A stretch of 64,000 nt of DNA from Anaerolineae bacterium (GTDB lineage Bacteria; Chloroflexota; Anaerolineae; B4-G1; SLSP01): positions 32,818-96,817 of the forward strand of contig DAOUGD010000126.1 of assembly GCA_034429475.1 (NCBI GenBank), in the 5' to 3' direction. Position 1 is the first letter of the stretch; each line of letters begins with the position of its first letter. The notes under the pieces are model-generated. The model was not told where the DNA came from, searched no databases, and saw nothing but the letters and a program-made list of their open reading frames with translations. Below, piece after piece: positions 11,357 to 63,470 of this stretch. The translations under genes were made by a program, and so were the position numbers.

Positions 11357-11396
11357 GAGCAGATTAAGCAGGTTTTCGGCTTAATCTGCTCTTTTT
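11357..11396 (+). terminator. intrinsic terminator (13-bp stem GAGCAGATTAAGC / GCTTAATCTGCTC, then TTTTT)
   Basis: A perfect hairpin plus T-run after the STAND-HEAT gene. It overlaps the stop codon of the convergent parA-like gene. Confidence 0.55.
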
Positions 11397-13070: not shown

Positions 13071-13072
13071 CG

Positions 13073-14035: not shown

Positions 14036-14044
14036 AACTACCTC

Positions 14045-47084: not shown

Positions 47085-49462
47085 GGGGGGGGCGTTTATC
47101 TGCGAACGTTCCCCGGTCAGTCCCTACCACCGGTATGCGCGGCGGCCTGGGTCGTACCTTGCTGACTGCGTTTCTGATTTTAACTATTTTGCCGCTGACG
47201 TTAACTGTTAGTTATGCCGTCCAGCAGAATCGCCAAAATGTGCAACGTGAAGTCGAAAGCAAGTTGCTGGCGGTTGCCACCCTCAAGGGAGAGGAACTGG
47301 AACGCTGGGTTGACGATTTGCGGTCGGTGTTATTGTTATCGGTAAGGCTGGCCGGCGATACCGACGACTACACGGAATGGTGGACGACCCTCACGCAGCA
47401 AATACCCGATTTGACTGGCGTGGTGGTGTGGAGACCGGAGGAACAGTCCCGCTGGACTGCCGGTGAGTGTGTACAAGCTTGGGATCAATTTCGCCTCACG
47501 GTCTCAGGCGCTAATTTGTTCTCTTCCCCGGCGGAGTTTGCCGTTTCTGACTTTGGCGCAACTGTTTTTTTACCAATCAAATATCAAGACCGTTCCCTCC
47601 TTTTTTGCATGGATGGCGCCATATTGGAGCGGGTGATCCACCATGGGATAGACGGAACCGGCGCGACGCGGGCCTACCTGATCCACAACATGTGTGCCTG
47701 GCCGAGCGCGACGACGCCATGCGCGCCGCCAATGGGGGAGTGGCCCCCGGCAGGGCAATCTGGTAGCGGCGTCTACGTGAACGCGCAGGGTATCTCGGTC
47801 ACAGGCGCGTATTACGCTCTGGCGGCAGAAGTCGGCATCCTGGTGGAACAACCCGAGGCGCACACGTCGGAATCGGTCGAGCTGATTGCGGCGACGTTCA
47901 TCGCCCTCGTGCTGGCCGTGGCGCTGGTCACCACGACGATTGCCGCGTTGGTGATCCGGCAGATCACCCTGCCGGTGATTCGCCTGACGGAGTCGGCGCT
48001 GGCAATGTCAGAAGGAGAACTGGATCAACACCTGGAGGTCACCTCGCGCGATGAGATCGGCATCCTGACGTATGTGTTCAACGACATGGCAGCGCAGTTG
48101 AAGTCGCTGTATGAGGACCTGGAAGCGAAAGTGGTGGATCGCACGCGGCTGCTCCAACGGGCTAACTACCAGATTCAGCGGCGCGCGCTGCACTTGCAGG
48201 CCAGCCAGGAAGTGAGTCAGGCGATCACGTCGGTGCGCGACCCGAATTTGTTGTTTATGCAGATGGCCGATCTCATCCGCGACAGTTTTATGTATGCGTC
48301 GGTCGCCATCTACATGGTGGAGCCGGGGGGCGGTGCGGCGGCGTTGAACGCCCTCAGCCCGGATGTGCGCGGCGCTCGTCCCAGCACCGAGGGGGAAATC
48401 GGTGGTTGGGCGGATTACGTGTACCCCGGCGACGGTTCGGCGGTGGAGCAGGCCATTCGCAAACGCGCTTCTCAGGTCGAGTATCAGGAAACCCGTGAAG
48501 AAGTGGATTGGTATCGCCGCACCTTAAGCCGGGTGGCTGTGCCGCTGCGTATGGGAGATCGGGTCATTGGGGCGATCGCAGCTTTGAGCACCGAGCACGA
48601 AGGCGTGCAGTCCGACGAATTAGAGGTGTTGGAACTGTTAGCCAACCAGATCGCGATTGCGGTGGAAAATGCTCGCGCTTACGAACGGGAGCGAGCGGCC
48701 ACCCACCATCTGGAAGAGGCCGAAGCCTTCAAGGCGCGTTTCCTGGCGAATATGTCGCACGCTTTGCGCGAACCTTTAAACACGGTGATTGGGTTCTCGC
48801 GCTTGATGATCAAGGGCGTAGATGGGCCGCTGACGGATTTGCAACAGCAGGATATGGGGCGCATCTACGAAGACAGCCAGCGTTTGTTGTTCTTGATCAA
48901 CGACATTCTGGCTATTTCCCAAATTCAGGCCGGGTTGATGGAGTTGAAACTGCAACCCATCCATCTTTCCGAAGTGGTCGCCGGCGTGATGCCCACCGCG
49001 ACGGCGTTGGTGCAGGGCAAGGACGTGGAACTGGTGCGCGATATTCCTGATGATTTACCCTTGTTACGCATTGACCCTTCGCATATCCGGCAGGTGTTGG
49101 TGCATTTACTGAACAATGCCGCCAAATTTACCGCTAAGGGGCGGATCACGTTACGGGCCTGGTACCGGGATGATTGGGTGTATGTCAGCGTCAGCGACAC
49201 GGGGGTGGGGATTCCCCCGGAGGATTTGGAGCGTATTTTCGTGCGATTCAATCAGGGCGCCTCGCGGCGCAACGCGCAGCAGGGGGCAGGACTGGGGTTG
49301 GCGCTGTGCAAGGAATTCGTGGAGATGCACGGCGGGCAAATCTGGGCGCAGAGCCGCGTGGATGAAGGCAGCATGTTTACATTTTCACTTCCCTGTTACG
49401 TAGACGGTCAAACCGCACCAGCCAATGCTACGGAATCGCCGGCAGGAGGCCAGGATGAATAA
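47069..49462 (+). CDS. membrane sensor histidine kinase (periplasmic loop, HAMP, GAF, HisKA, HATPase_c)
   Basis: AGGAGG RBS 5 nt before ATG 47069, overlapping the receiver stop by 16 nt. An alternative start is MRGG at 47135. HAMP (LPVIRL ... FNDMAAQLKS), GAF, H-box (FLANMSHALREPLN) and G-boxes (DTGVGI ... GLGLAL) are present. A G9 tract occupies codons 6-8. Confidence 0.8.
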   Translation: MGAGVGGGRLSANVPRSVPTTGMRGGLGRTLLTAFLILTILPLTLTVSYAVQQNRQNVQREVESKLLAVATLKGEELERWVDDLRSVLLLSVRLAGDTDDYTEWWTTLTQQIPDLTGVVVWRPEEQSRWTAGECVQAWDQFRLTVSGANLFSSPAEFAVSDFGATVFLPIKYQDRSLLFCMDGAILERVIHHGIDGTGATRAYLIHNMCAWPSATTPCAPPMGEWPPAGQSGSGVYVNAQGISVTGAYYALAAEVGILVEQPEAHTSESVELIAATFIALVLAVALVTTTIAALVIRQITLPVIRLTESALAMSEGELDQHLEVTSRDEIGILTYVFNDMAAQLKSLYEDLEAKVVDRTRLLQRANYQIQRRALHLQASQEVSQAITSVRDPNLLFMQMADLIRDSFMYASVAIYMVEPGGGAAALNALSPDVRGARPSTEGEIGGWADYVYPGDGSAVEQAIRKRASQVEYQETREEVDWYRRTLSRVAVPLRMGDRVIGAIAALSTEHEGVQSDELEVLELLANQIAIAVENARAYERERAATHHLEEAEAFKARFLANMSHALREPLNTVIGFSRLMIKGVDGPLTDLQQQDMGRIYEDSQRLLFLINDILAISQIQAGLMELKLQPIHLSEVVAGVMPTATALVQGKDVELVRDIPDDLPLLRIDPSHIRQVLVHLLNNAAKFTAKGRITLRAWYRDDWVYVSVSDTGVGIPPEDLERIFVRFNQGASRRNAQQGAGLGLALCKEFVEMHGGQIWAQSRVDEGSMFTFSLPCYVDGQTAPANATESPAGGQDE

Positions 49463-51389
49463 GAAGCAGACATCCATTGCCGAGGAACCGATGTCTCGGG
49501 ATGCCATGGAATCGTGGCAGCGCGATCTGTTCGCGCGGATGCTGCGGATGATCACGGTGGCGACCTTCCCCGTGGTGCTGACCGGGCTGTATTACGCCTA
49601 TGTGACTCAAAATCTCTGGCTGGCGCCGGCGATTTGGGGGGCATACAGTGTGATTATCCTCAGCGCCTTTGTCCCTCGGATTCCTTATTCCTTGCGCGTC
49701 TGGGCTTTTCTAGCAGTCCTGCTGGTGATGGGGCTGGGGGACTTGTTGACCTACGGCTGGGGGCGGGATGTGCGCATTTATTGGATCGGCGCCATGCTGT
49801 TTGCCACGCTCTTTCTGGGCGGACGTCATGGGCTGATGGTGTTGATAGGCACTTGCCTCCTCTTGGGCGCGTTTGTCGTGGGCGTCGTCACCGGACTATT
49901 GGTCCCCTCTTATGATTCGATGAGCGCCTATCCGCCTTTTGCCCTGATCGTTGGGTGGATTGTTTTCGTAGTCCTGGCGATAGGACTCTATGCCACGTTC
50001 AATTATCTGTTCCCCCGGCTGCTGACCGCTTTGCAAAAGAGCGCCGCCCTATCCGCCTCCCTGGAGGAGCAGCAGAACGTCCTGGCCGAGCGCACACGGG
50101 CACTCCAGGAAGCCAACACGAATTTGCAGCGGCGGGCCATGTACCTGGAGGCCAGCACACAGGTTTCTCAGGCATTGGCGACGGTGTTTGAGTTGGAGAT
50201 TCTGTTGGAACAGGCGGTGAACCTCATCGTGCAGCACTTTGATTTCTACCGCGCGGTCATTTTCCTGGCAGAAGAGGATGGGCAGTCGGCGCGGCTCTAC
50301 GCCTCCGCGTCGGTGGGCGGGCGGCGGATGACGCTGCGGACACAACGTTGGCGCGCCGGGGAACACAATGCGGTGGGGGTGGCGTTGGCTAATCGTCAAC
50401 CGTGTGTCATGACCACCGGCAAACGCACGATGCCCTATGCGACAGAAGTGGACCTCTCTATGGTGCGGGCGGAAGCGGCGCTGCCGCTGCTGGTGGGCGA
50501 GCGGCTGCTCGGCGTGTTGGACATATATAGCGGGGAAGAAGCCGCTTTCGATCCCGACGATGTGCGCGCCCTGCAAGGCCTGACCGGCCTGCTGTCGGTG
50601 GCGGTGGACAATGCGCGCCGGCTCGGCGACGAGGCGGCGGTTCTGGAAGCCGCCAGCCCCTTGTACCGGCTAGCGCATCGCCTGGCGACGACGCGCACCG
50701 AGCGCGAGATTTACGCAGCGATGTTGGAATCGCTGCGTGACTTCAACCCGGCGCGCGTCTTCATCTTCCGCCAGAGCCGCCTGCCCCATGCGCACATGTC
50801 CGCGGCGGAACAAGCCTATCTGGTGGCCGAAATGCGCGGTGCCGAAATCAATTTCCACGATCAGTATCTCACGGCCGCCAACATCCGCCACATCGGAGAT
50901 TTGATCAATTTCGGGGTCACGTTGGAATCTGCCGTGGTGATCGGCGATTTGAGCGCATCCTACCATTCCGGCGACGCCGATGTGGATCGTGTCCTGGTTA
51001 ACCTGGCTACCGAACTGGGCATTTTGGCGTTGGCGCTGGCGCCGATGCGGTTGGAGTCACAGTGTTTGGGGGTGGTTTTGATCACCTACAACACCCCCCA
51101 TCAGTTCACCCCGTTGCAGGGGCAACTCCAGCGCGTGTTGGCGAACTTGGCGACGGTGGCGTTGGAGCGGATCCGGCTGCTGCACGAGGCGCAGACCCGT
51201 GTGAGCCGGGAACGCTGGCTGCGGGAGTTCGGCGAGCAGGTGATGCGCATCCCTGACCTGGAAATGATGGTTGCGCAATCGGCCCAAATGCTCCAGGACG
51301 TGGTACAGGCGGATGGCGTCCTGCTGTCTCTCGCGCCGCCGGACACGGATGCGGGAAGGACGGCCTGGGGAGGCAAAGGTGCGGGATAG
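49455..51389 (+). CDS. polytopic-membrane (5-6 TM) coiled-coil protein with three GAF domains, no output domain (paralog 1 of 8)
   Basis: GGAGG RBS and an ATG overlapping the kinase stop by 8 nt. TM bundle, then a coiled coil (LEEQQNVLAERTRALQEANTNLQRRAMYLEAS), then GAF (FDFYRAVIFLAEEDG ... LPLLVGERLLGVLDI). No H-box or ATPase motif was seen. Confidence 0.65.
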   Translation: MNKKQTSIAEEPMSRDAMESWQRDLFARMLRMITVATFPVVLTGLYYAYVTQNLWLAPAIWGAYSVIILSAFVPRIPYSLRVWAFLAVLLVMGLGDLLTYGWGRDVRIYWIGAMLFATLFLGGRHGLMVLIGTCLLLGAFVVGVVTGLLVPSYDSMSAYPPFALIVGWIVFVVLAIGLYATFNYLFPRLLTALQKSAALSASLEEQQNVLAERTRALQEANTNLQRRAMYLEASTQVSQALATVFELEILLEQAVNLIVQHFDFYRAVIFLAEEDGQSARLYASASVGGRRMTLRTQRWRAGEHNAVGVALANRQPCVMTTGKRTMPYATEVDLSMVRAEAALPLLVGERLLGVLDIYSGEEAAFDPDDVRALQGLTGLLSVAVDNARRLGDEAAVLEAASPLYRLAHRLATTRTEREIYAAMLESLRDFNPARVFIFRQSRLPHAHMSAAEQAYLVAEMRGAEINFHDQYLTAANIRHIGDLINFGVTLESAVVIGDLSASYHSGDADVDRVLVNLATELGILALALAPMRLESQCLGVVLITYNTPHQFTPLQGQLQRVLANLATVALERIRLLHEAQTRVSRERWLREFGEQVMRIPDLEMMVAQSAQMLQDVVQADGVLLSLAPPDTDAGRTAWGGKGAG

Positions 51390-53055
51390 TCAGAAGCAGA
51401 TCGAGCCAGAAGTCGCCGCAGCGGACGCCGAAATCCGTGAGCTGCAGCATACCCTGTTGACCCACGTGATCCAGGTACTCTTTTGGGCCGGGATACCGGC
51501 GTTGGTGATGGGCATCTATTACGTCGTCACCGATGGCGATTGGATCTACGGCCTGGCGTATATCGGGCTTTTTCTCGTCCTGGGAATCCTCCGTCTGGTC
51601 AAGCGTATCCCCTACGGCGCCCAAATCGGCAGCCTGTTGGCGCTGGCCTATGGCCTGGCCCTGTTATCGGTCTTTCGCGGGGGATTGTCGAGCAACGTGC
51701 GCCTGTTTTTGCTGATGCTGCCCTTTATGGCCGTGGTGTTCTTGGGCGCGCGGGCCGGGCTGGTGCTGCTGCTGCTTTCCCTGTTGACCCTGGGTGAGTT
51801 TGCCGGGCTGTTTTCACTGGGGATCATGGAAATATCCACCGACGTGCAGGTCTTGTCCCACAAACCGGTGGCCTGGTTCAGCTACACCTTGACGTGGCTG
51901 TTTGCCAGTGTTTTTGTGGTAGCCTCCTTGACCCAACTGCTCACCCGTTTCCGGGCAACATTGATCAAAAGCCATGATCTGACCTACAAACTGGACACGC
52001 AGCGAATGCAGGCAGAGCAGAGCGCCGAATATGCGAACTTGCACGCCGTGCGGATGCAGTGGGTGGCCGAATTTGGCAATGCGTTAGCCTCACTGCGCCG
52101 GCGGGAAATGGTAGCATGGCGCACAGTGCGGGAGATGGAACGCAGCCTGAACCTCTATCAGGTGAATGTCTTCCTGGCCGACCGCACTGGCTCTACGTTG
52201 GTGCTGGCGGCGGCCGCCGGCGTGCAGGGCGAGACGCTGGTCGCCGAGGGCCTGTCGGTATGGGTGGGGGAACGATCGCTGTTGGGGAAAGTGGCGCAGA
52301 CCGGACGTGAACAAATTCGCGTGTTGTCGCCCGACGAAATGGAATACTTCCCGTTGAGCCGGGTGGAGACAGCCCTACCGCTGGTTGTGCGCGGTGAACT
52401 GTTGGGCATCTTAGACATTCACAGCACGGAATCCACATTTTCGGAGAGCGACATGCAGCTCTTTCGCGTGGTAGCCGGGTACGTGACGACTTCCCTGGAT
52501 ATGCTGGCCGCGCTGGAAGAGATCAACGGGCAGCTTCAGGAGATGCGCGCGTTGTATAACCAATACACCATCGCTTCGTGGCGTTCCTTGTTGGCGGAGA
52601 AGCTGAAATTGTCCTACGCCACCGGCGCGCTTTCTGAGGATCCCATCCAAACCCTGGCGGCCGAGGCGTTGCAGACCCGCACGGTGCGTTCCCGTCCGCC
52701 GGGTGAGGGGCTGGACGAGTACCTGCTCGTCGTGCCGTTGATTGCGCGGGACCTGCCTTTGGGCTATGTGGCCTTTACCCGTTCGGGAGAGCTGGGCGAC
52801 TGGGACGCTGAGACGCGCGTTTTCATCGAAGCCGCTGCCGAGCGTCTGGCGCTGGCGCTGGATAACACCCGCCTGTTGGTACAGACACGGCGGCAAGCCT
52901 TCTATCAGGAACAGTTGGGCCGCCTGGATGACGTGGTGTGGCGCAACCCGAGCACCGCTGCTATTATGGAGGGCAGTGTGCAGGAACTGGGGCGCGTCCT
53001 GGATGCCAGTGAAGTGCAAGTTTACCTGACGCCGATGGTGTGGGAGGCGCAATGA
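51379..53055 (+). CDS. polytopic-membrane coiled-coil protein with two GAF domains, no output domain (paralog 2)
   Basis: GTG start after GGGGAGG, overlapping the upstream stop by 11 nt (the ORF is open from 51271). ~6 TM helices. GAF (LNLYQVNVFLADRTG ... LPLVVRGELLGILDIHS) and a second GAF. Confidence 0.6.
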   Translation: MRDSQKQIEPEVAAADAEIRELQHTLLTHVIQVLFWAGIPALVMGIYYVVTDGDWIYGLAYIGLFLVLGILRLVKRIPYGAQIGSLLALAYGLALLSVFRGGLSSNVRLFLLMLPFMAVVFLGARAGLVLLLLSLLTLGEFAGLFSLGIMEISTDVQVLSHKPVAWFSYTLTWLFASVFVVASLTQLLTRFRATLIKSHDLTYKLDTQRMQAEQSAEYANLHAVRMQWVAEFGNALASLRRREMVAWRTVREMERSLNLYQVNVFLADRTGSTLVLAAAAGVQGETLVAEGLSVWVGERSLLGKVAQTGREQIRVLSPDEMEYFPLSRVETALPLVVRGELLGILDIHSTESTFSESDMQLFRVVAGYVTTSLDMLAALEEINGQLQEMRALYNQYTIASWRSLLAEKLKLSYATGALSEDPIQTLAAEALQTRTVRSRPPGEGLDEYLLVVPLIARDLPLGYVAFTRSGELGDWDAETRVFIEAAAERLALALDNTRLLVQTRRQAFYQEQLGRLDDVVWRNPSTAAIMEGSVQELGRVLDASEVQVYLTPMVWEAQ

Positions 53056-55277
53056 GTCTGACGCCATCTTTTAGCCAGATATTACAATGGCTGGCCCTGT
53101 CGTTGGCCCTGTTGGAAATCATCCTGCTGGGGTATCTCGTGGCGTTGAACCTGGGGCGCTCCCCCCTCCAGTTTGCGCGGCAGTGGTTATTGCGCACGCG
53201 CCTGCTGGTCTTGTTGCTGACGATCACCACCCCCCTGTTGACGGCCGGCATCGTGTGGGTGGTGGCCCAGGCGATGCAGTTGGTGGAAGCGAATGAGGCT
53301 CGGCGCCTGGAAGCGCTGAACGCGGCCCTGCTCTCCAATGCCGAGTTGTGGTACGAACTCCATACAGACGCCTTGAGCCAGTTAGTATCCGCACCGGCCA
53401 TCGTTAGCATGGATCCGGCGCAGCAGAAGTCTTTTCTGAAAATCATGGCCCAGACGCATCCCGACATGTACCTGGTAAGCACTCTAAATCTGACAGGGAT
53501 GAACGTCACACGCAGCGACGCCCTCCCTTTGACCAATTACGCCGACCAATCCTGGTTCCAGGCGGTGCAGTCCGGCGCCCCTCAGGTTTTCCAGGTAGTG
53601 GTGGAATCTACCGCCGGTATTCCCGCGTTGATAGGCGCCATGCCCATTTATGACAGCCGTGAGAACCTCGTGGGCGTCGGTATGTTCGCCTGCGCCCTGA
53701 CCGACATGGCTTCCCAGATGCGCCCCCAGACGGTGGGCAACACAGGGTATGCGTATATGGTGGACAGCAAAAATCGCCTGTTGGTGCATCCCGATCCGAC
53801 GGTGATGGCGCAGGCCGGCGACCTTGGCGAGTATCCATCGGTGAAAGCCCTACGCGCGCACACCGGCCCCTTGGTGAAATTCGAGAGCGAGGGCCGCCGG
53901 TGGTGGGCCGCCGTCAGCGAGGGTGGCCCGGACTGGGGCATTGTAGTGCAGCAGCAGGAGTTGGAACTGTTGCGGGACATGCGCACGTTTATGCAACTCG
54001 CGTGGCTGGTGGGGTTGGTGTGCGTGGGACTGTTGGCCCTGGCAAGCTACCTGGCGTTGCGTCAGGCCTTCCAACCCATCGTGGCATTGACCGGGACGAT
54101 CAATGCCGTTGTGGCAGGCGATTGGAGCCGCAGCCTCCCGGTGGAAAGAGGGGACGAATTGGGCGCGCTGGCGCGAGCCTTTAACGGCATGACCTCTCAA
54201 ATCCGGGACCTGATTCACACGTTGGAGTCGCGCGTGGCGGATCGCACCCGCGACTTGGAACAGCGTGCGACGTACCTGGCCGTCACGACCCAGGTCAGTC
54301 GCGTCGTCAACGCCATCCTGGACGTAGACGAATTGCTGCCGCGCGTCGCGCACCTGATTACCGATCGGTTCGGATTTTATCACGTCGCCATCTTTATGTT
54401 GGACGAAAGCGGCGAATGGGCCATTCTGCGCGCGGCCTCTTCTGAGAGGGGGCAGGGCATGGTGGCGCGCGGCCATCGCTTGCGCGTGGGTGAGCAGGGT
54501 ATCGTGGGCTATGTATCGAGTTCCGGGCGCCCGCGCATTGCGCTGGACGTGGATGTGGATGCCGTGTGGATGAAAAGCCCGGACTTGCCGACTACCCGCT
54601 CGGAAATGGCCTTGCCCTTAAGTGTGGGCGACCGGGTGTTGGGTGTTCTGGACATTCAGAGTGAGACGCCATCTGCCTTTTCCATAGAAGATGTGGAAAC
54701 GCTGCGGGTCCTGGCCGATCAAATCGCCATTGCAATTCAAAATGCACGACTGTTTCAAGGCAGCCAGCGGGCGCTGCGGGACTTGCAGCGCGCTTATGGC
54801 GAAACGGGGGCGCGGGCCTGGCGCACGCGCGCCTCGGCCCTGTTGGGGTACCGTTACACCCCCGAAGAAACCCGCCCGATTCTCGAATTACCCGAGACGC
54901 CGACGGATGCGATGAACTCCACCCACGTCACGCCCGCTAACACGTTGGTGGCGCCGCTGCGGATGCTCGGTGGGCGATCCTTTGGCGTTTTGCGGCTGGC
55001 CCGGCTTCCGGCGCAGCCCTGGACGGCGCAGGAGATTCAATTTGTCCAGCAGGCGGCGCAGGGGATAGCCCAGGCTTTGGAAGTTGGGCGTCTGTTAGAG
55101 GAGACCCGCGACCGGGCGGCACGCGACCATCTGGTCGGAGAGATTGGGGGGCAATTGCGCACAACTTTGGATCCCGATGCCATCATGAAGACGACGGTGC
55201 AGGCATTGGGACGCTTGTTGAAGGCCGAGTTGACCACCATTGAAGTCAGTGGCGGCTATGATGGAACGGATGGATAA
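53052..55277 (+). CDS. Cache-like, HAMP, GAF, GAF membrane sensor protein without output domain (paralog 3)
   Basis: GGGAGG RBS and an ATG overlapping the upstream stop. TM1, then a Cache-like periplasmic domain (NYADQSWFQAV ... GYAYMVDSKNRLLVHPDP), then TM2, HAMP, GAF (FGFYHVAIFMLDESGEWAILRAASS ... LPLSVGDRVLGVLDIQS), a degenerate GAF, and a C-terminal ELGRLL module. Confidence 0.65.
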   Translation: MSLTPSFSQILQWLALSLALLEIILLGYLVALNLGRSPLQFARQWLLRTRLLVLLLTITTPLLTAGIVWVVAQAMQLVEANEARRLEALNAALLSNAELWYELHTDALSQLVSAPAIVSMDPAQQKSFLKIMAQTHPDMYLVSTLNLTGMNVTRSDALPLTNYADQSWFQAVQSGAPQVFQVVVESTAGIPALIGAMPIYDSRENLVGVGMFACALTDMASQMRPQTVGNTGYAYMVDSKNRLLVHPDPTVMAQAGDLGEYPSVKALRAHTGPLVKFESEGRRWWAAVSEGGPDWGIVVQQQELELLRDMRTFMQLAWLVGLVCVGLLALASYLALRQAFQPIVALTGTINAVVAGDWSRSLPVERGDELGALARAFNGMTSQIRDLIHTLESRVADRTRDLEQRATYLAVTTQVSRVVNAILDVDELLPRVAHLITDRFGFYHVAIFMLDESGEWAILRAASSERGQGMVARGHRLRVGEQGIVGYVSSSGRPRIALDVDVDAVWMKSPDLPTTRSEMALPLSVGDRVLGVLDIQSETPSAFSIEDVETLRVLADQIAIAIQNARLFQGSQRALRDLQRAYGETGARAWRTRASALLGYRYTPEETRPILELPETPTDAMNSTHVTPANTLVAPLRMLGGRSFGVLRLARLPAQPWTAQEIQFVQQAAQGIAQALEVGRLLEETRDRAARDHLVGEIGGQLRTTLDPDAIMKTTVQALGRLLKAELTTIEVSGGYDGTDG

Positions 55278-55298
55278 CCTGCCCCGGGTGCGGAGGCT

Positions 55299-57146
55299 GT
55301 GATGCTGGAAACGTTGAACCCCTTTCTGGTAATCGCCGGTGTACTGCTGGCCGTCGCTCTCTTGCTGACGCTGGGGATAGCGCTGGCTTTGACGCGCGAT
55401 CTCCGGCGCACCCTGCGTGCGCTGACGGACGCGCTCGCACAGATGGCGGAAGGGACCTGGCCGCGGCTGCCGGCCCTAGGGCGGCAGGACGAACTCGGTG
55501 AGTTGGCGCGCGGGCTATCGGCGCTGTCTGCGCAGTGGCGGGAGCGCCTGGAGCGTATGAGTCAGGAGACCGTCGCGCAAACTACCCGCGCGGCGCAGCA
55601 AGCTGCCCGCGTGGCCGCAACCGCACGGGTGTCGCATCACCTGCTCGCCGTCGTCGGGACCGACGACTGGCTGGCTGTCTCCGTCCGCCAGATTTCGGAA
55701 CAGTGCAAGTTTTATCACGTGGGCGTGTTTTTGTTGGACGATGCGCGCCAGGCAGTCATCCTGCGCGCCGCCTCATCGGCGGTGGGACAGCGCTTGCTGG
55801 CCGGCGGCTACAAAGTGCTTCTGGCGGAATCCCCCGATTTCGACGCGGTGGTGGCGCACCGGCGGGCCATCATTCCGACCGTCGCCACCCCGACGCCCGC
55901 CGATTCCCCCTTCCCGCAGACGTGCTCCGCAGTGTTGCTGCCTTTGAACGTGGCCGGCGACGTGATCGGGGTGTTGGATATCCACTCGACGGAAGCGGCG
56001 GCTTTCGACTTTGAACAGGTGGCGCCTTTGCAAATGCTGGCCGACGCTTTGAGCCTGGCATGGCACATGGCGCACATCCAAACCACCGCCGCCGCCCAGA
56101 TTGACGAACTCAACCGCCTGCTGCGCACCCAGGGTGAAGAAGGGTGGGGGCTTTTAACGCGGGAACGGCGGCATTGGGGGTACGGGTATGACGGCGTTGA
56201 GGTGCGGCCCGCCGCCGAATTGGCCCTGGACGACCGCCCTCCCCAGTGGGTGCTGCCGCTCCAGGGGGGGCGTGAGGCAATGGGGGCGCTGAAAATCTTT
56301 GCCGACCCCGACGCGCTCGACGCCAATGACTTGGACCTGGTGCGCGCGGTGGCGGATCAGGCCGGCCGTGCGATGGAAAGCGCGCGGCTGTTCAGCAAAA
56401 TGCAGATCGCTTTGGAGGAAGTCGGCGTATTGTACCGGTGCAGCCAGGCGTTGGGCGTGGCGCGCACCGAGGAGCAAGTGTTGCGCGCGTTTGTGGATTA
56501 TTTGATAGCCCCAGAGATTGATCGCTGTGTGTTGGCCTTGATCGAGCCGGGCGCGGTTGAATCCAACCGCATCGTGCGCCTGGCGGCAGCCTGGGATGCG
56601 GGCAAGGCCCATTCGCCTCTCCTGGGGGATCGCTGGGAGGTGGCGAAGATTCCGATGATGGCCCAGACCACCACGGCGCCGCTGGCAATTCCGGATGTTG
56701 CGGCGGCCAAAAACCTGGACCCCGTCTCCCGGCAAGTTTTTCAGGAAGCGTTGCAACTGCGCGCGCTCATGTTGGTTCCCCTGGCAGCGGGAGGACAATT
56801 ATGGGGCTGGCTGCTGGCGGCTGCCACGCGCGCTCCCTACCATTTCACTGAGAGAGAATGGCGCGTATACCGCAGTCTGGCCGACCAGGCCGCCCTGGTG
56901 TTACAAAGCATCCGCTTGATGGAGGAGGTGACACAGCGCGCCGAGCGGGAACGGCGCGTGACCGACATCACGGCGCAGATTCGCCGTAACACGGACGTGG
57001 ACACGATTTTGCAGACTGCCATCCGGGAGTTAGGGCGGACGCTGCGTGCTTCTGATGGATTGATCCGCCTGGGATTGGGAGCGGATCGTCATGTCGGGCA
57101 TACTCAACCCTTGCGGCTTCCCGACGGCGTGGAGGATAAATCATGA
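55299..57146 (+). CDS. TM, HAMP, GAF x3 protein without output domain (paralog 4)
   Basis: GGAGG RBS. One TM helix, HAMP (LTRDLRRTLRALTDALAQMAEG), GAF (CKFYHVGVFLLDDARQAVILRAASS ... LPLNVAGDVIGVLDIHS), two further GAF-like modules and a C-terminal IRELGRTL module. Confidence 0.65.
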   Translation: MMLETLNPFLVIAGVLLAVALLLTLGIALALTRDLRRTLRALTDALAQMAEGTWPRLPALGRQDELGELARGLSALSAQWRERLERMSQETVAQTTRAAQQAARVAATARVSHHLLAVVGTDDWLAVSVRQISEQCKFYHVGVFLLDDARQAVILRAASSAVGQRLLAGGYKVLLAESPDFDAVVAHRRAIIPTVATPTPADSPFPQTCSAVLLPLNVAGDVIGVLDIHSTEAAAFDFEQVAPLQMLADALSLAWHMAHIQTTAAAQIDELNRLLRTQGEEGWGLLTRERRHWGYGYDGVEVRPAAELALDDRPPQWVLPLQGGREAMGALKIFADPDALDANDLDLVRAVADQAGRAMESARLFSKMQIALEEVGVLYRCSQALGVARTEEQVLRAFVDYLIAPEIDRCVLALIEPGAVESNRIVRLAAAWDAGKAHSPLLGDRWEVAKIPMMAQTTTAPLAIPDVAAAKNLDPVSRQVFQEALQLRALMLVPLAAGGQLWGWLLAAATRAPYHFTEREWRVYRSLADQAALVLQSIRLMEEVTQRAERERRVTDITAQIRRNTDVDTILQTAIRELGRTLRASDGLIRLGLGADRHVGHTQPLRLPDGVEDKS

Positions 57147-59365
57147 AGCGGCTGTCATTCATTACGAAGAATCTGCTCAACCGGATGATCGCCTATGTAC
57201 TGGTGTTGCTGCTGTTGACCATCAGCCTGATGGGGTATTTGGCTTACATCCTCGCGCGTCAAAACCTGACCGACTCGGTCTTCAATCGCCTGGAATCGGT
57301 GGTGACACTCAAGGAAGACGAATTGCAGCGTTGGGTAGCGGATCAGCGGCAGAACGTTACCTGGATGGCAGGGCAAGAGCCGGTGCGTCGCTGGACCGCG
57401 CAACTGCTTCAAGGCGATGTTGAACGAGCGACCGTTTACACCACGTTTTGGGCTTATTTACGGGCCGCCGTGACGCAAAGAGCCGGACTGCGGGAACTCT
57501 TTGTGCTGTCTGTGCCGGAGGGTCAGGTGTTGATTTCCTCCACTCAAGCGCACGAAGGGCAATCTCAGGCGGCCGCCGAGTACTTCATCCAGGGCCGTGC
57601 GGGAATTTATGTCCAGACCATCTACGTGGCGGAGGATGGCGAGCCGACCATCACCATCGCCAACCCGATATTTAACGCCGCCGGAGAATGTATCGGCGTA
57701 CTGGCGGCGCATCTGAATTTGGAGCGGATGCAACAGATTATCCTGGAAGGACCGGGCATGGGCGCCCGCAGTGAGGTCTTTCTGGTGGATGGCGCCGGCG
57801 ACTTCGTCGTGGCGCCCCGCGCGTTGTTGGCCGCCGGCGTGGACCTGGGGGCGTTGACTGCCGGGGTACGGGCGGTGATCGCGGGGCAAGACGGGCAGGC
57901 CACTTATTCAACCTATGAAGGTCATTCGGTGCTGGGCGCCTATCATTGGCTGGATGAGTACGGCCTGGGGGTCGTGGCCGAGGTGGGTGAAGATTACGCC
58001 ATTCTGGCGCCAGCGCGTCGCTTGTCGGCAACGGTGTTGGCGGTTGGATCGGGCGCGTCCATCCTGTTGCTGATCGGTGCAGTCTTGCTGATGCGACAAG
58101 GAATGCAGCCGTTGCGCGCGCTGACCGAGGTCGCCCGTGAAGTCGCGCAGGGACGGCTGGACCGACAGGCCCCTGTCGTCACCGAGGATGAGTTGGGCGT
58201 CTTCGCGCAGACGTTCAATCAAATGACCGCGCAACTGCGCGCGTCGTATGCCGAACTGGAACAGCAAGTGCGTGTGCGGACCCAGACTCTGGAAAAACGT
58301 TCACGTCAGTTGGAGGCGGCGGCGCGCGTCGCCAGCGCCGTCTCGGCCATCTACAACGTGGACCAACTGTTGGACGAGACCGTGCGCTTGATCCCGACCC
58401 ACTTTGACGTAGATCATGCCGGCATCTTCCTTTTGGATGAGGCCGAGGAATACGCCGTTCTGCGGGCGGCCTCTTCGGAGGGGGGGCTGCGGATGTTGGC
58501 GCGCGGCCACCGGCTGCGGATCGGGCAGGGGATTGTCGGCTCCGTGGCGCACACCGGTCAGCCTCGCATCGCCCTGGATGTGGACGCCGACGGCGCGTTC
58601 GTACCTAACCCAGACATTCCGGCGACGCGCTCGGAAATGGCGCTGCCCCTGCGGGCGCGCAACCGGGTGATTGGCGTGCTGGACGTGCAGTCGGAGCAGG
58701 CGGCAGCCTTCGCTGAAGAGGATGTTTCGGTGTTGCAGACGATGGCGGAGCAGGTGGCCCTGGCGATTCAGAATGCGCGTCTGCTGCGAGAAAGTGAGTT
58801 CGCGGTGCGCGAGTTGGAGCGACGCTATGGAGAGCAAATTCATACCGCGTGGCAGGCGCGGCTTTCCCGTGAGGCGGCAGCCTATCGCTACACCGGTGTG
58901 CGGGTGGAACCGGCCGGGGGGCGCACCCTACAAAAGTTCCCGGCCATTCCGCCCGATCACGTCACGTTAGTGAATGAGGGTGAGGCGGGGCGGCGTCTGA
59001 CCGCGCCGATTCGGATGCGGGATCACATTTTGGGTTCGATTGTGTTGCAGCAGAACCCGGACGAGCCGCCGTGGTCGGAGGCCGACATGACGCTGTTAGA
59101 AGCCACCTGCGATCAGATTGGTATGGCGTTGGACAATGTCCGCTTGTTGGATGAGTCACGGGAACGGGTGGCCCGCGAGCGGCTGACCGGCGACCTGGCC
59201 GCGCGGATTCGGGCGGCCTCCACCGATATAGACGTGGTGTTGCAGACCACCATCCGCGAGTTGGGTCGGCTGTTGCACGCCACCGGCAAAATTCACCTGA
59301 GCGGGCCTTCTGCCTGGGCCTCCACCGCGGCGGAGAATTCTGCCGAGAGCGAAAGGCAGGCGTAA
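57143..59365 (+). CDS. Cache-like, HAMP, GAF, GAF membrane sensor protein without output domain (paralog 5)
   Basis: ATGA overlap with the upstream stop. TM1, a Cache-like domain, TM2, HAMP (LRALTEVAREVAQGRLDRQ ... FNQMTAQLRAS), GAF (HFDVDHAGIFLLDEAEEYAVLRAASS ... LPLRARNRVIGVLDVQS), a second GAF and a C-terminal IRELGRLL. Confidence 0.65.
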   Translation: MKRLSFITKNLLNRMIAYVLVLLLLTISLMGYLAYILARQNLTDSVFNRLESVVTLKEDELQRWVADQRQNVTWMAGQEPVRRWTAQLLQGDVERATVYTTFWAYLRAAVTQRAGLRELFVLSVPEGQVLISSTQAHEGQSQAAAEYFIQGRAGIYVQTIYVAEDGEPTITIANPIFNAAGECIGVLAAHLNLERMQQIILEGPGMGARSEVFLVDGAGDFVVAPRALLAAGVDLGALTAGVRAVIAGQDGQATYSTYEGHSVLGAYHWLDEYGLGVVAEVGEDYAILAPARRLSATVLAVGSGASILLLIGAVLLMRQGMQPLRALTEVAREVAQGRLDRQAPVVTEDELGVFAQTFNQMTAQLRASYAELEQQVRVRTQTLEKRSRQLEAAARVASAVSAIYNVDQLLDETVRLIPTHFDVDHAGIFLLDEAEEYAVLRAASSEGGLRMLARGHRLRIGQGIVGSVAHTGQPRIALDVDADGAFVPNPDIPATRSEMALPLRARNRVIGVLDVQSEQAAAFAEEDVSVLQTMAEQVALAIQNARLLRESEFAVRELERRYGEQIHTAWQARLSREAAAYRYTGVRVEPAGGRTLQKFPAIPPDHVTLVNEGEAGRRLTAPIRMRDHILGSIVLQQNPDEPPWSEADMTLLEATCDQIGMALDNVRLLDESRERVARERLTGDLAARIRAASTDIDVVLQTTIRELGRLLHATGKIHLSGPSAWASTAAENSAESERQA

Positions 59366-59367
59366 CC

Positions 59368-60591
59368 ATGGCGACGTGGGGTTGGTTGGTTATCATCGCG
59401 GTAGTGCTGGCGGTGGCTGGCGGCGTGGTGGCGTGGCAGTGGCGGCGCGTTCAGGCGCTGCTGGCCCAACAGCACCTATTGGAACGGCGCATAGCCGAGC
59501 TAATGGACGTCCAGACGACAGAACGGCAGCACTTGACGCAGCAGGCTGAAGCCTTTGCGCAGCGCCTGGAGCGTTTCCGGGCGGCAGCGCTGGTGGCGCG
59601 GGATGCCGCCGCCATTCGTAACTTGGACGAATTGATGCAGGCGTTGGTGACGCTGATCTCGCAGCGCTTCGACTTTTATCATGCCGGGGTGTTCTTGTTG
59701 GATGATGCCGGCGACTTCGCGGTGATGCAGGCGGCGTCATCCGAAGGGGGGCGGCAAATGCTGGCGCGGGGACACAAACTGCGGGTGGCCGAGCAGGGGA
59801 TCGTGGGGTACGTGGCGGCGCGGGGGGAAGCGCGCATTGCCCTGAACGTCGGCGAGGACGCGGCCTGGGCCAGCGCGCCGGAACTGCCGAAAACTCGCTC
59901 AGAGATGGCGCTGCCTTTGAAGGTGCGCGAGCAGGTCATTGGCGTGCTGGACGTGCAGTCTACCGAACCGCAAGCCTTTATCCAGGAGGACATTGAAGTA
60001 CTCCAAACAATGGCCGATCAGTTAGCCTTGGCGATTCAGAGCGCGCGGCTGTTTGAGGAAAACCGGCGCACCGTCGAGCGGTTGGAGATCCTGTACCGGG
60101 AGCAGATGGGGGAAATATGGCGCAGCCGGGTCGGCACGCGCACCTACATCTACGATGGCCTGAACGTCGCGCGCGCGCTGGCGGAGGAGACGCCGGCGTT
60201 GGTCAATAGCCAGCACGTGGTCACGTCACACCAGTTGGTCATCCCGATCTTCCTGCGCGAGCACGTCATCGGTTCGATCACCCTGGAACGCGATCCGATA
60301 CAACTGCCCTGGTCGGATGAAGAGGTGGCGTTGGTGGAAGAGATCGGCGTGCAGGCCGGCCTGGCGCTGGACAATGCACAGTTGTTGGCCGACAGCCGGC
60401 AGCGCGCGACGTACCAGCAGCAGCTCAGCGACGTGTCACGGGTCTTTTCCGGGGCCGTGAACATGGAAGCAATGTTGCAGGCCGCCGTGCGTGAGTTGGG
60501 GCGGCTGCCGGGGGTGGCGGAGGTGGCCGTCCACATTGACGCTCCCCGCGCCGTTGCGAATGACATTGAGCAAGCGGCGAATGACGAATAG
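59368..60591 (+). CDS. single-TM coiled-coil GAF, GAF protein without output domain (paralog 6)
   Basis: N-terminal TM (WGWLVIIAVVLAVAGGVVAW), a coiled coil, GAF (FDFYHAGVFLLDDAGDFAVMQAASS ... LPLKVREQVIGVLDVQS), a second GAF and a C-terminal VRELGRL module. Confidence 0.65.
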   Translation: MATWGWLVIIAVVLAVAGGVVAWQWRRVQALLAQQHLLERRIAELMDVQTTERQHLTQQAEAFAQRLERFRAAALVARDAAAIRNLDELMQALVTLISQRFDFYHAGVFLLDDAGDFAVMQAASSEGGRQMLARGHKLRVAEQGIVGYVAARGEARIALNVGEDAAWASAPELPKTRSEMALPLKVREQVIGVLDVQSTEPQAFIQEDIEVLQTMADQLALAIQSARLFEENRRTVERLEILYREQMGEIWRSRVGTRTYIYDGLNVARALAEETPALVNSQHVVTSHQLVIPIFLREHVIGSITLERDPIQLPWSDEEVALVEEIGVQAGLALDNAQLLADSRQRATYQQQLSDVSRVFSGAVNMEAMLQAAVRELGRLPGVAEVAVHIDAPRAVANDIEQAANDE

Positions 60592-60646
60592 CGAATTACG
60601 AATGACGAATAACGAATTACGAATCACGAATTGTGAATTTCGGATG
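60582..60646. repeat. 8-mer tandem repeat (CGAATNAC variants x8) spanning the stop codon of paralog 6
   Basis: Read directly from the sequence. It belongs to the same family as the array at 29846. Confidence 0.65.
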
Positions 60647-60656
60647 AGGCAGGTCA

Positions 60657-63470
60657 ATGGCTGCTAAAAAGAGAGAGACGCTGATATCGGTGAAACCATC
60701 GAGCAGCGCGCGCCCCCGCCCGACGGTGGGGTTGCTGCTTTCCTGGCTGCGGGATGATTATCAAAGCGGCCTGGTGATGGATATGCATACGATAGCCCAA
60801 AAATTGGGGGTGGACTTGCTGTGTTTTGTGGGCGGCGATTTGCGCGAGGCGTATCCGCAAAACGTGATCTACGATCTGATCTCCTCCCAATGCGTGGAGG
60901 GTCTGATCATCAGTCCTTCCCTGTCGCACGCTTGCGACCCCGCCGTCCTGCACAATTTCTACGCCCGGTTTGCGGACCTCCCGCTGGTGAGCGGCGCGTT
61001 TGGCGTGCCGGAAATCAATCAGATTTTGTGCGACAACCTGGTGGGGATGCGCCGGGCGGTCGAACATCTTATTGTCGAACACCACTATCGCCGGATTGCC
61101 TTCGTCCGAGGGCCGGTGGGCCAGCCGGAGGCAGAGGCGCGGTATCAGGCATATCAAGAGGTGCTGGCCGCGCACCAGATTCGCCTGGATGAGAAATTAG
61201 TCATATTGGGCGACTTTACCGGCCCTGGTTCTCGCGCGGCTATTACCGAATGGCTCCAAAAGGGTGAGATTGTGGACGCCATTGTGGCTTCCAATGACGT
61301 CAGCGCGATGATTGCCATGGAAATATTGACGGCCCATGGCCTGCGGACGCCGGAGGACGTGGCAATAGTGGGGTTCGATGATGTGCCGGCCGCGCGCGCC
61401 CTGAGTGTGCCCCTGACGACCGTGCGCCAGCCGTTCTCCCAGATGTCGGAAATGATGATGGCGAACTTGCTGGCGCAGATCCGGGGAGAAACGCCGCCGG
61501 TCATCCAGATGGTGCCCTCTGAGTTGATTGTGCGTCGTTCGTGCGGCTGCCTGCCGGCATCGGTCCAACAGGCGCAGTTGGAAATGAGCGCGTATGTTGG
61601 CAAGGAAATCCTGGTGATGTCACGGGAGACCGTCCCGCAGGACGTTCCAGAAGTGCTGTGGTATGCCATGGTGGACGAGTTGGAAGGTGTCCTGGAGGGC
61701 AAATTCCTGGTCGCCTTTGACCAGATGTTGCACCAGACCTACCAGATGCATGGCGATATGGAGCGCTGGCAGGGAGTATTATCCTCTCTGCGCCATGCGG
61801 CGATGCTGTATGGGGTGCGGCAGCGTGCGGCGCGCCCGGAGTTCTTCGGCGCGCCGTTGGTGATGCGGCTGGAGACGCTCATACAGCAGGCGCGGATTCT
61901 GGCCAGCGAGGCAGCGTTGCGTATGAGCACTCGGCTGCGCCAGGACGACCGGGTGTATGTAGCCAATTCTCAGGCGTTGGATAGGGCGATGAACGCAGTG
62001 TTGGATTTATCTGAGCTGCCTGGGGTGTTTGCCCGTTTTTTGCCTCCCATTCCCATGAACATTTGCCACATAGCCCTCTATGCCGGAGATGGGCCAGCGT
62101 TCACTTCCCGCGCCCGGTTGGCGGTGAGTTACACACGCGGCCAATCGCAATTCCACCCAGACTCGGCTGCTTACCCGGCTACTGATTTGTTGCCGGCGCC
62201 TCTGTGGCCGCCGGCAGAACGGACGACCGTGGTGATTATGCCGTTGTTGATGCAAAACCAACAGTTGGGATTCGCCTTTCTGGGGCATGACTCTCCCCAC
62301 ATCTGGGTTTATGACCAGCTCAGCAGCCAATTGAGCGGGACTGTTTTTCGCGCCCTGCTGATCCAGCAACAGCAGGAAGCGCAGCGCGATGTGGAGCGGC
62401 TGTTGGCCGACCTCCAGCGGCGCGCTCGCTTGCTGGCCGGCGCTGCCGAGATTTCACGGGCCGCCACCTCGCTCACCCACCTGAGTGAGTTGCTGCCCCG
62501 TGCGGCGACGTTGATTTGTGAGCATTTCCGGTTGTACTATGTTGGAATTTTCCTGCTGGACGAGAGCCGGCAGTGGGCCGTGTTGAGTGCGGACGCCGGG
62601 GCGGCCAACCATCGCCTGTTGGAGCAGGGGTACAAACTGTCTGTCGGCCCTTCGTCCCTGGTGGGAACGTGTATGGCGACGGGGCAGGCTCAGGTGACGG
62701 CGGATGTGACGACGCAGGTCTCCTCTTACCTGGCGCACCCCTTGCTGCCGGACACTCGTTCCGAAGCCGTGCTGCCTTTGCTCAGCCGGGAGCGCGTGGT
62801 GGGCGCCATGAGCATCCAATCGGCCGAGCCGGAGGCCTTTTCCGCAGATGACCTGACGACGCTCCAGACGATGGCCGATCAGTTGGTCAATGCGATTGAA
62901 AATGTCCGCTTACTGGAACAAATGACGGAGAGCCGTTATGAATTGGAGATGGCCTCCGGGCAGTATACGGCCGAATCGTGGCGGGAGTACGTGAGTCACG
63001 CGGCGCAGCAGTTGGGGTATCGTTACCGGCAGGTGGCCGTGGAGCCGACCGCCGAAAAATCCCCTGAAGCGCAAATAGCCTTGGAACGCAATGTACCGGT
63101 GCTGGTGCCCTTGCTGGAAACCCCCGGTGTGCGCAGCGCGTTGGCTACTCCCATCCGCCTGCGCAATCAAATCCTCGGCGTGCTGAATGTGCGTTTTGAA
63201 GAGAGCGACGTGCCGCCCGAAACGGTGGAGTGGGTGAACCAGGTCGCTGATCGTCTGGCGATCTCGTTGGAGAGCGTGCGTTTGTTGCAGGAAACGCGCA
63301 GCACGGCCGAACGTGAGCAGTTAGTCGGGCGGGTGACGGCCCAAATGCGGGCGAACCTGGATGTGGACGCGGTCCTCAGAACGGCCGCCGCTCAGATCCG
63401 TGAGGTCATGGACCTGTCGCGGGTCACGATCCGCCTGGCGACCCGACCGCAAAAGTCAGACGAAGGCTGA
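60657..63470 (+). CDS. cytoplasmic LacI-type periplasmic-binding-fold (PBP type 1) domain fused to GAF domains, no output domain (paralog 7)
   Basis: The N-terminal ~330 aa resemble a LacI/sugar-binding core (LLLSWLRDDYQSGLVMD ... VGFDDVPAARALSVPLTTVRQP). Then GAF (FRLYYVGIFLLDESRQWAVLSADAG ... LPLLSRERVVGAMSIQS), further GAF-like modules and a C-terminal module. Confidence 0.6.
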   Translation: MAAKKRETLISVKPSSSARPRPTVGLLLSWLRDDYQSGLVMDMHTIAQKLGVDLLCFVGGDLREAYPQNVIYDLISSQCVEGLIISPSLSHACDPAVLHNFYARFADLPLVSGAFGVPEINQILCDNLVGMRRAVEHLIVEHHYRRIAFVRGPVGQPEAEARYQAYQEVLAAHQIRLDEKLVILGDFTGPGSRAAITEWLQKGEIVDAIVASNDVSAMIAMEILTAHGLRTPEDVAIVGFDDVPAARALSVPLTTVRQPFSQMSEMMMANLLAQIRGETPPVIQMVPSELIVRRSCGCLPASVQQAQLEMSAYVGKEILVMSRETVPQDVPEVLWYAMVDELEGVLEGKFLVAFDQMLHQTYQMHGDMERWQGVLSSLRHAAMLYGVRQRAARPEFFGAPLVMRLETLIQQARILASEAALRMSTRLRQDDRVYVANSQALDRAMNAVLDLSELPGVFARFLPPIPMNICHIALYAGDGPAFTSRARLAVSYTRGQSQFHPDSAAYPATDLLPAPLWPPAERTTVVIMPLLMQNQQLGFAFLGHDSPHIWVYDQLSSQLSGTVFRALLIQQQQEAQRDVERLLADLQRRARLLAGAAEISRAATSLTHLSELLPRAATLICEHFRLYYVGIFLLDESRQWAVLSADAGAANHRLLEQGYKLSVGPSSLVGTCMATGQAQVTADVTTQVSSYLAHPLLPDTRSEAVLPLLSRERVVGAMSIQSAEPEAFSADDLTTLQTMADQLVNAIENVRLLEQMTESRYELEMASGQYTAESWREYVSHAAQQLGYRYRQVAVEPTAEKSPEAQIALERNVPVLVPLLETPGVRSALATPIRLRNQILGVLNVRFEESDVPPETVEWVNQVADRLAISLESVRLLQETRSTAEREQLVGRVTAQMRANLDVDAVLRTAAAQIREVMDLSRVTIRLATRPQKSDEG

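Follow-up and report, generated by a model that had tools for sequence, protein, structure and literature searches.

A GAF-derived C-terminal stub in an array of kinase-less multi-GAF sensors from an Anaerolineae bacterium

In phytochromes and tandem GAF proteins, the alpha5 and alpha1 helices form the dimer axis. Signalling helices (S-helices) and coiled-coil linkers reportedly connect sensor and output domains. Bacterial sensors that have input domains and lack a recognisable output domain have long been a puzzle in the study of signal transduction. The DNA analysed here, referred to as the window, is a 64,000-nucleotide (nt) stretch from an Anaerolineae bacterium (GenBank assembly GCA_034429475.1, contig DAOUGD010000126.1, positions 32,818 to 96,817), the last 17 kb of which contain eight genes in a row on the + strand, P1 to P8 (Table 1). 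P1 encodes a histidine kinase. The products of P2 to P8 each contain a canonical FhlA/PtsP-like GAF domain (GAF1) without a recognisable output domain, and all seven of these output-less paralogues share a tail, which we will call the stub, at their C-termini. The stub is very probably the alpha1-alpha2-beta1 portion of a GAF domain of the phytochrome/cyanobacteriochrome class, ended right after beta1. Its functional role is much less certain than this structural identity.

The conserved unit spans about 50 amino acids (aa) and comprises a first helix, an S-x-D turn, a second helix and a 'G-x-S-R-x-x-V-x-L' segment. Its pattern runs from a charged 'T/S-x-R-x-A-x-R-E' start through 'L..(E)I...IR', 'S-x-D' and 'xxIL.T(A)..EL(G)..L' to 'G.S...V.L', and the conserved V-x-L segment is followed by 6-21 variable, mostly polar residues and then the stop. 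In an alignment of 95 tails, the conserved residues are R33, D37, T44, E48 and L49. A sequence-only reading of the window had drawn attention to five strings at the ends of these proteins, all of which were found at the C-termini of the P4 to P8 open reading frames (ORFs); P2 and P3 also carry the element. That reading described a single orphan helix followed by 10-20 residues, whereas the alignment reveals the two-helix unit with its V-x-L segment, and the distance from the quoted strings to the stop is 18-33 residues. An external hidden Markov model (HMM) was built from 66 metagenomic tails and 22 tails of very large multi-GAF proteins ('giants', see below), with no window sequence included. 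Searched against 1153 six-frame segments of the window, it matched only the seven C-termini of P2 to P8, with E-values from 3e-19 to 4e-5 and with matches ending 2-21 aa short of the stop (12 aa in P2). Pfam and NCBIfam searches of the array proteins returned GAF, HAMP, dCache and MASE11 only, and no family for the tail.

A profile of the tail, compared with the sequences of the PDB, matches the first 40-44 residues of phytochrome/cyanobacteriochrome-class GAFs with E-values of 2e-11 to 1e-6. The top match is 6OAP, residues 138-181 ('QRIERERVVSQITQKIHQTLDLEEILQTTVTEVRQFLQADRVFV', E = 2e-11), and further matches include SyB-Cph1 (8W26/2LB5, residues 11-53), 8K9O, 6BHN and 6UV8. When the profile is extended to include the module that precedes the tail, the alignment runs contiguously over the GAF-to-PHY junction of 8W26 (147-248) and of Cph2 (4BWI, 141-245). 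It is on these PDB and junction alignments that the assignment to alpha1-alpha2-beta1 rests, and they show more than the helix 1 of a GAF to which the tail had previously been limited, as well as a subclass other than that of GAF1. The phytochrome-class N-terminal signature 'ERL..I...IR.S.D...IL.T.V.E.R..L..DRV' is present in the tail; the bilin pocket and its Cys are absent, since the body of the GAF domain is absent from the stub. With the tail placed before the module, the first ~30 positions of the Pfam GAF profiles (PF01590, PF13185 and PF13492) are aligned. A complete GAF fold has 130-150 residues and a 5-6-stranded sheet, and the tail, with ~50 residues, two helices and no strand in AlphaFold2 (AF2) models, represents a GAF fragment and not a whole domain. 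The sequence-only reading had also held that the same pattern opens the full GAFs upstream in the same proteins. An hhalign comparison of the seven tails with nine full GAFs of the window does place them in register with alpha1-beta1, but the signal is weak (P = 2e-4, probability 47%), and the N-termini of the full GAFs in P2 to P8 score at most 3 bits with the external HMM. Taken together, the alignment, hhalign and the PDB matches indicate that the tails are homologous to one another and to the start of a GAF. Weaker, internal tail-like matches in the giants are followed by complete GAFs. For GAF1 itself, the Pfam matches (GAF, GAF_2 and GAF_3) have E-values of 1e-29 to 1e-21, and the top Foldseek matches are PtsP and NifA-like GAFs.

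Two other origins were considered and rejected. A helix-turn-helix (HTH) DNA-binding motif was considered for 'ELGRALGTSRALVRL', but no HTH family matches consensus-type tails at E ≤ 1, and the pattern is the alpha2-beta1 signature of solved GAFs. For an origin from DHp/HisKA, no HisKA (PF00512) match occurs in tail-containing sequences at E ≤ 1, and no H-box is found in the tail alignment.

Word-index homologue searches are nearly blind to the stub family, returning 1, 15 and 13 matches. An exhaustive profile search with the module-plus-tail alignment returned 76,974 cluster representatives at E < 1e-3, and the best 150 of these were analysed. They are the giants, proteins of 1,269-3,952 aa with 6-21 GAF repeats. 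In this set, 103 proteins contain a HisKA/HATPase core (near the C-terminus in 101), 22 end in the tail and none has both; the other 25 are mostly fragments or proteins with other outputs. Past the last alpha5 ('ALENARL.E.') comes a DHp helix ('..ETAERLKEVDRLKSQFLANMSHELRTPL') in the kinases, whereas the other proteins have the stub there ('TQRRAERERLIGEITAKIRASTD...'). The window provides a parallel in P1, where the GAF alpha5 ('ENARAYERERAA...') runs into a DHp helix at the position that the stub occupies in the paralogues. The split among the giants, in conjunction with the shared alpha5 junction, shows that the stub occupies the position of the kinase core, in agreement with the earlier proposal that the tail sits where an output domain would be expected.

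The same C-terminal position is seen in metagenomes. Tail peptide patterns were found at 68 loci on metagenome contigs, and at 66 of these the stop lies 0-62 aa after the match. The tail also works as a stand-alone profile beyond the window, as had been suggested: the HMM finds 134 matches in the metagenomic loci, of which 124 have a stop at most 70 aa further on, the other 10 being either the beginnings of complete GAFs, with low scores, or ORFs cut off by the end of the contig. These searches show the stub to be an obligate C-terminal element of a large, kinase-less family of multi-GAF sensors. The family is apparently unannotated and, in the lineage of the window, belongs to the Chloroflexota. 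Full-text literature on permuted or truncated GAFs, on MASE11 and on GAF proteins with ParA-like partners in Chloroflexi yielded no description of the element, and a GAF-derived C-terminal stub appears to be new to description. It is modular, since it follows either of two kinds of domain. About 44 of the 66 metagenomic tails come directly after a small module, designated W-YxY. Tails placed after a canonical GAF occur in P2 and P5 of the window, in the giants P0060, P0073 and P0055, and in the metagenomic loci L011, L012, L017 and L025. In P2 this GAF is a canonical second GAF that takes the place of the W-YxY module, and in P5 it is a Pfam-detected GAF (aa 389-536), with the W-YxY module further upstream.

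Could the tail simply be the relic of a GAF broken by a nonsense or frameshift mutation, or an assembly artefact? One truncation point is common to the seven window paralogues, to 12 on the full contig, to 10 in a related Chloroflexota metagenome-assembled genome (MAG) and to more than 120 metagenomic genes. Furthermore, the distance from the stop to the next gene for P4 to P8 ranges from a 4-nt overlap to a 66-nt gap, so that no space is left 3' of the stops for the missing remainder of a GAF, and conservation is higher in the stub than elsewhere in the protein. Errors of this type do occur in public data. In a JGI contig of 32,281 bp, which covers nearly the same locus (proteins P0159, P0167 and P0168), the tails of P6 and P8 are frameshifted ('...RERLTATWPRGFGRPPPI' and '...RTAAARSVRSWTCRG...'). 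The frameshifts in P0159 and P0167 look like assembly errors, because the window, its full contig and the MAG agree with one another. A relic or artefact is effectively excluded.

The W-YxY module, 106-126 aa in length, sits between GAF1 and the tail. Its three parts are a long helix in which one Trp is invariant, a strand with the motif 'G-Y-x-Y', and an end that resembles the beta-beta-alpha5 of a GAF and bears a 'P-W-s-x-E' signature. Two independent AF2 models were examined, one of P7 aa 54-407 (me988474a0eea; predicted local distance difference test score, pLDDT, 81) and one of P6 aa 545-740 (ma67e00b97bae; pLDDT 85.5). In the P6 model, the YRY and VEP strands form a hairpin that makes up a five-stranded sheet with three further strands. 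On the strength of this predicted sheet, the module is a minimal, degenerate second GAF without the pocket helices, with YRY as its first strand. The YRY motif had been noticed before as a linker between GAFs; the motif is real (W26 is invariant and the Y conserved among 46 module sequences), but it is a beta-strand of this second GAF and not a linker. Of two HMMs for the YRY region, a 5-sequence version was too insensitive and an 18-sequence version misses divergent modules visible by eye, so that counts of co-occurrence of stub and W-YxY module are lower bounds.

The models agree on the architecture of the tail. In both, the alpha5 of the module and helix 1 of the tail form one uninterrupted helix of 46 residues, which is followed by a turn of 3-4 residues, a helix 2 of 13-16 residues ('IDVVLQTTIRELGRLL') and a beta1-like segment predicted as coil, with no sheet partner. 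In P6 the continuous helix covers aa 646-691, helix 2 aa 696-711 and the beta1-like coil aa 712-721, and the tail blocks have pLDDT values of 85-91. P7 has the same topology, with low confidence near the YxY strand (pLDDT 46-55). In the models, helix 1 thus runs on from alpha5 and is not a separate element. An amphipathic helix had been proposed from the sequence as a possibility. Helix 2 is amphipathic in seven of seven tails (hydrophobic moment 0.38-0.65; five of seven with p < 0.05 against shuffles), a property that helix 1 does not consistently have.

Because the tail carries exactly the alpha1-alpha2-beta1 elements that the W-YxY module lacks, the two might constitute a split or circularly permuted GAF. 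In the cis version of this explanation, circular permutation would have arisen by duplication and truncation; in the trans version, a strand or domain would be swapped from one protomer to another, or else among the paralogues that make up the array. In their native order, the sequences cover Pfam GAF positions 56-133 only, and with the tail moved to the front four of five are covered in one stretch from 1 to 133. Single-domain cyanobacteriochrome GAFs (6OAP, 6BHN and 2LB5) match the module-plus-tail profile in two stretches and in permuted order, and P0072 (residues 787-940) shows the canonical order, with a tail-like segment that a G/P/S linker joins to a GYVF module behind it. The frequent position of metagenomic tails right behind the module and the low model confidence around the P7 YxY strand also fit. 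Nevertheless, the gain on permutation is small (1.7-7.6 bits), and in the better model, that of P6, the YRY/VEP hairpin completes the five-stranded sheet without the tail, the beta1 segment of which is coil in both monomer models. The 46-residue helix is straight and has no conserved breaker, which puts the beta1 of the tail at a distance from its own module. In proteins where no W-YxY module is detectable, the stub comes after a complete canonical GAF instead, as in P2, in 12 of the 22 giants (below the HMM threshold) and in L011, L012 and L017. The predicted structures do not favour a tail that completes a GAF fold, be it in cis or in trans, and we consider a permuted GAF quite improbable.

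The reading that we prefer, with moderate confidence, is a composite one, in which the stub extends and caps a dimeric helical spine in output-less sensors as a helical hairpin and offers an interaction surface. Helix 1 would prolong the preceding GAF's alpha5 in the manner of the GAF-to-PHY spine of phytochromes, and the small helical hairpin would cap the dimeric spine and keep its register. The stub would then act as a protein-protein interface, with stub-stub contacts in a homodimer and/or contacts with another protein, for example the kinase encoded next to it or one of the multi-GAF giants, and movements of the spine induced by the sensor may be read out via association and not catalysis. 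Comparison with the Chloroflexota MAG (JAKQHY010000129, locus L001), which holds a syntenic cluster of proteins 67-89% identical to those of the window, bears on this reading. For P3 to P8, the stub is 90-98% identical between orthologues and the rest of the protein 65-81% (Table 1), and the extension after the stub diverges between orthologues. Among the paralogues of the window, by comparison, the mean identity of the stubs is only 28%. To judge from these identities, the stub is under purifying selection and is specific to each paralogue, and its conservation in orthologues together with its divergence in paralogues fits a specificity of self-association.

Several points weigh against a spine cap. 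Apart from its inconsistent amphipathicity, helix 1 contains an RRAERER stretch that is wholly charged and atypical of a coiled-coil core. In a model of a purely helical cap, the conserved V-x-L 'beta1' segment (V60, L62) is left without an explained partner. The packing of helix 2 is inferred from pLDDT and DSSP only, and the alignments behind the AF2 models are shallow, with 19-20 sequences. In the wider family the stub is so highly conserved that a specific partner may be suspected, and the metagenomic set over-represents the consensus subtype, because it was retrieved via the most conserved motif of the stub.

A specific partner is central to another explanation, namely that the stub is the actual output of these proteins, a docking module that would bind a P1-type kinase, the giants or a ParA/MinD-like ATPase and gather the sensors into one complex. 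The gene neighbourhoods lend this some appeal. On the window's own 204-kb contig (L071, JGI Ga0255811_10372811; 1-22814), the kinase P1 heads an array of 12 stub-ending paralogues on the same strand; five of these come after P2 to P8, past the end of the window, and are followed by a 1520-aa PAS/GAF protein. The order is the same in the MAG for the 10 paralogues covered. At least two stub genes stand in tandem on the same strand in 45 of 69 loci, and kinase genes flank the stub genes in L027, L036 and L050. In 25 metagenomic loci, a gene for a ParA/MinD-type ATPase (Pfam AAA_31, 1.4e-47, and CbiA; for instance L050 3135-3983) lies on the strand of the stub genes and begins ~0-50 nt beyond the last of them. 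Next to the ATPase gene comes that of a PAS/multi-GAF giant, whose N-terminus has a conserved basic peptide, 'MSKKxLxNRLxxLFADLE', and the stub-ending giants P0012 and P0094 begin with a like peptide. ParA-type ATPases recognise cargo by N-terminal peptides, which this one recalls. The stub being the best-conserved part of the proteins likewise suits docking. The ~28% identity among the stubs of array paralogues, on the other hand, is a better fit to paralogue-specific self-association than to one shared partner, and on the window's contig the 10 kb that follow P8 contain no ParA-like gene. We consider docking of this kind unlikely, and capping of the spine with an associated interaction surface remains our preferred reading.

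A broader scheme, for which our expectation is lower still, would treat the stub as the assembly and output module of a signalling apparatus new to description. Arrays of about a dozen output-less membrane sensors and the giants, with either the stub or a kinase core at their ends, would co-assemble through stub and spine contacts, possibly trans-completing the W-YxY GAFs, into a multi-input complex that feeds few kinases and that in many genomes is positioned by the ParA/MinD-like ATPase. If true, stub-based assembly would be a GAF-based analogue of chemoreceptor arrays. The stub itself is a modest surprise, and the system that it marks, comprising sensor arrays, giants and the ParA-like ATPase, could be of more interest.

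Table 1. Coordinates of the array and of related features (window positions unless a locus is named; identities are those of the stub and of the rest of the protein to the orthologue in L001)
Feature	Position	Strand	Description	Basis	Stub/rest identity
P1 gene	47069-49462	+	HAMP-GAF-HisKA-HATPase histidine kinase, head of paralogue array	Pfam	
P2 gene	49425-51389	+	MASE11 input		
P3 gene	51271-53055	+	MASE11 input		
P4 gene	53040-55277	+	dCache+HAMP input		
P5 gene	55299-57146	+	HAMP input		
P6 gene	57143-59365	+	dCache+HAMP input		
P7 gene	59368-60591	+	single-transmembrane input		
P8 gene	60657-63470	+	LacI-type periplasmic-binding fold as input		
P2 stub	51189-51341	+	aa 589-639, then 15-aa variable extension; stop ends 51389	external HMM, E 4.3e-5	
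P3 stub	52885-53034	+	aa 539-588, 6-aa extension, stop	external HMM, E 7e-7	94%/81%
P4 stub	55104-55253	+	aa 689-738, 7-aa extension, stop	external HMM, E 9e-15	92%/72%
P5 stub	56928-57080	+	aa 544-594, 21-aa extension, stop	external HMM, E 3e-19 (best in window)	90%/65%
P6 stub	59156-59305	+	aa 672-721, 19-aa extension, stop	external HMM, E 3e-14	96%/77%
P7 stub	60394-60543	+	aa 343-392, most divergent tail, 15-aa extension, stop	external HMM, E 5.6e-7	98%/78%
P8 stub	63294-63443	+	aa 880-929, 8-aa extension, stop	external HMM, E 2e-16	94%/75%
P6 W-YxY module	58787-59155	+	aa 549-671: helix with invariant W570, YRY/VEP beta-hairpin, three more strands, alpha5		
P3 W-YxY equivalent	52516-52884	+			
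P4 W-YxY equivalent	54756-55103	+			
P5 W-YxY equivalent	56082-56399	+			
P7 W-YxY equivalent	60055-60393	+			
P8 W-YxY equivalent	62916-63293	+			
P6 GAF1	58355-58774	+	aa 405-544, canonical FhlA/PtsP-like, 5' of W-YxY module	Pfam GAF/GAF_2/GAF_3	
P4 GAF1 equivalent	54318-54740	+		Pfam	
P7 GAF1 equivalent	59617-60039	+		Pfam	
P8 GAF1 equivalent	62481-62903	+		Pfam	
Loci with ParA-like gene			L014, L015, L019, L020, L022, L024, L030, L033, L034, L039, L040, L043, L045, L047, L050, L051, L053, L055, L056, L059, L062, L065, L066 and others		
PAS/multi-GAF giants after ParA-like gene	L056 3974-6121; L020 4027-6138; L062 1362-3509 and others				

Some further features of the window are recorded here. 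The true starts of P3 and P2 probably lie further downstream than the mechanically called ORF starts, which for P3 is a TTG at 51271 (giving a 119-nt overlap with P2 at 51271-51389) and for P2 makes an overlap with P1 at 49425-49462; gene calling on L071 gives 568 aa for P3 and 644 aa for P2, and the ORF of the P3 orthologue in L001 has 558 aa. In P8, aa 1-608 (60657-62480) include a LacI/RbsB-type fold (Peripla_BP_3, 1.9e-29) without the LacI HTH, and ~300 residues without a family match lie between this fold and GAF1. Such a cytoplasmic, sugar-sensor-like input is unusual for a GAF protein. Between HAMP and GAF1 (54200-54320 and 58250-58350), the linker helix of P1, P4 and P6 bears the motif 'V(A)DRT(R)xLE', which we take to resemble the ERT signature of signalling helices. 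Elsewhere in the window, the - strand region 11381-14827 holds jag- and yidC-like genes and, ~660 nt downstream of these, a chromosomal ParA/Soj-like gene (E = 5.5e-40 to the ParA-like protein of the metagenomic loci); a single ORF (12222-13070) separates them. The ParA/Soj-like gene probably encodes an ordinary partition ATPase with no tie to the GAF array 35 kb away. From one end of the window to the other, the cumulative GC skew shows an almost monotonic rise.

The 50-residue stub offers a concrete, testable handle on signal transmission by output-less sensors and is a natural case of a domain fragment kept as a functional unit. Its profile could find and annotate thousands of such proteins.

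Four known systems invite comparison. The first is the N-terminus of phytochrome and cyanobacteriochrome GAFs (6OAP, 8W26/2LB5, 4BWI and 6BHN), whose '(R)ERL..I...IR.S.D...IL.T.V.E.R..L..DRV' motif is homologous to that of the stub. In the GAF-to-PHY spine of knotless phytochromes, the junction of alpha5 into alpha1 is likewise contiguous in the alignment, and in the stub models it is one long helix. Unlike these GAFs, the stub is C-terminal and stops after beta1, without a sheet, a bilin pocket and Cys, or a downstream PHY or kinase domain. The DHp (HisKA) hairpin resembles the stub in continuing directly from the last GAF alpha5, the two being mutually exclusive in sister proteins, and both have a helix-turn-helix topology and could pair in a dimer. 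The stub differs from DHp in having no phospho-acceptor His and no CA domain and in being GAF-derived by sequence. Like an S-helix, the stub begins with a long helix that leaves a sensory domain and has a charged conserved core. An S-helix is a coiled coil of ~40-50 aa that joins two signalling domains and has a central ERT motif, whereas in the stub only a short hairpin follows and the motif is RAERER; helix 1, which runs on from alpha5, is charged (RRAERER), with charged residues that break its heptad register. Finally, the array proteins share the GAF-long helix-GAF layout of the tandem-GAF modules of PDE2A/PDE5A and CyaB2, and the Foldseek matches that align over more than 250 columns are these tandem GAFs along with structures of GAF-PHY units and of full-length phytochromes. 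Tandem-GAF modules regulate a fused catalytic domain; in the array proteins, the second GAF is minimal, with no ligand-pocket helices, the third is reduced to the stub, and there is no catalytic output.

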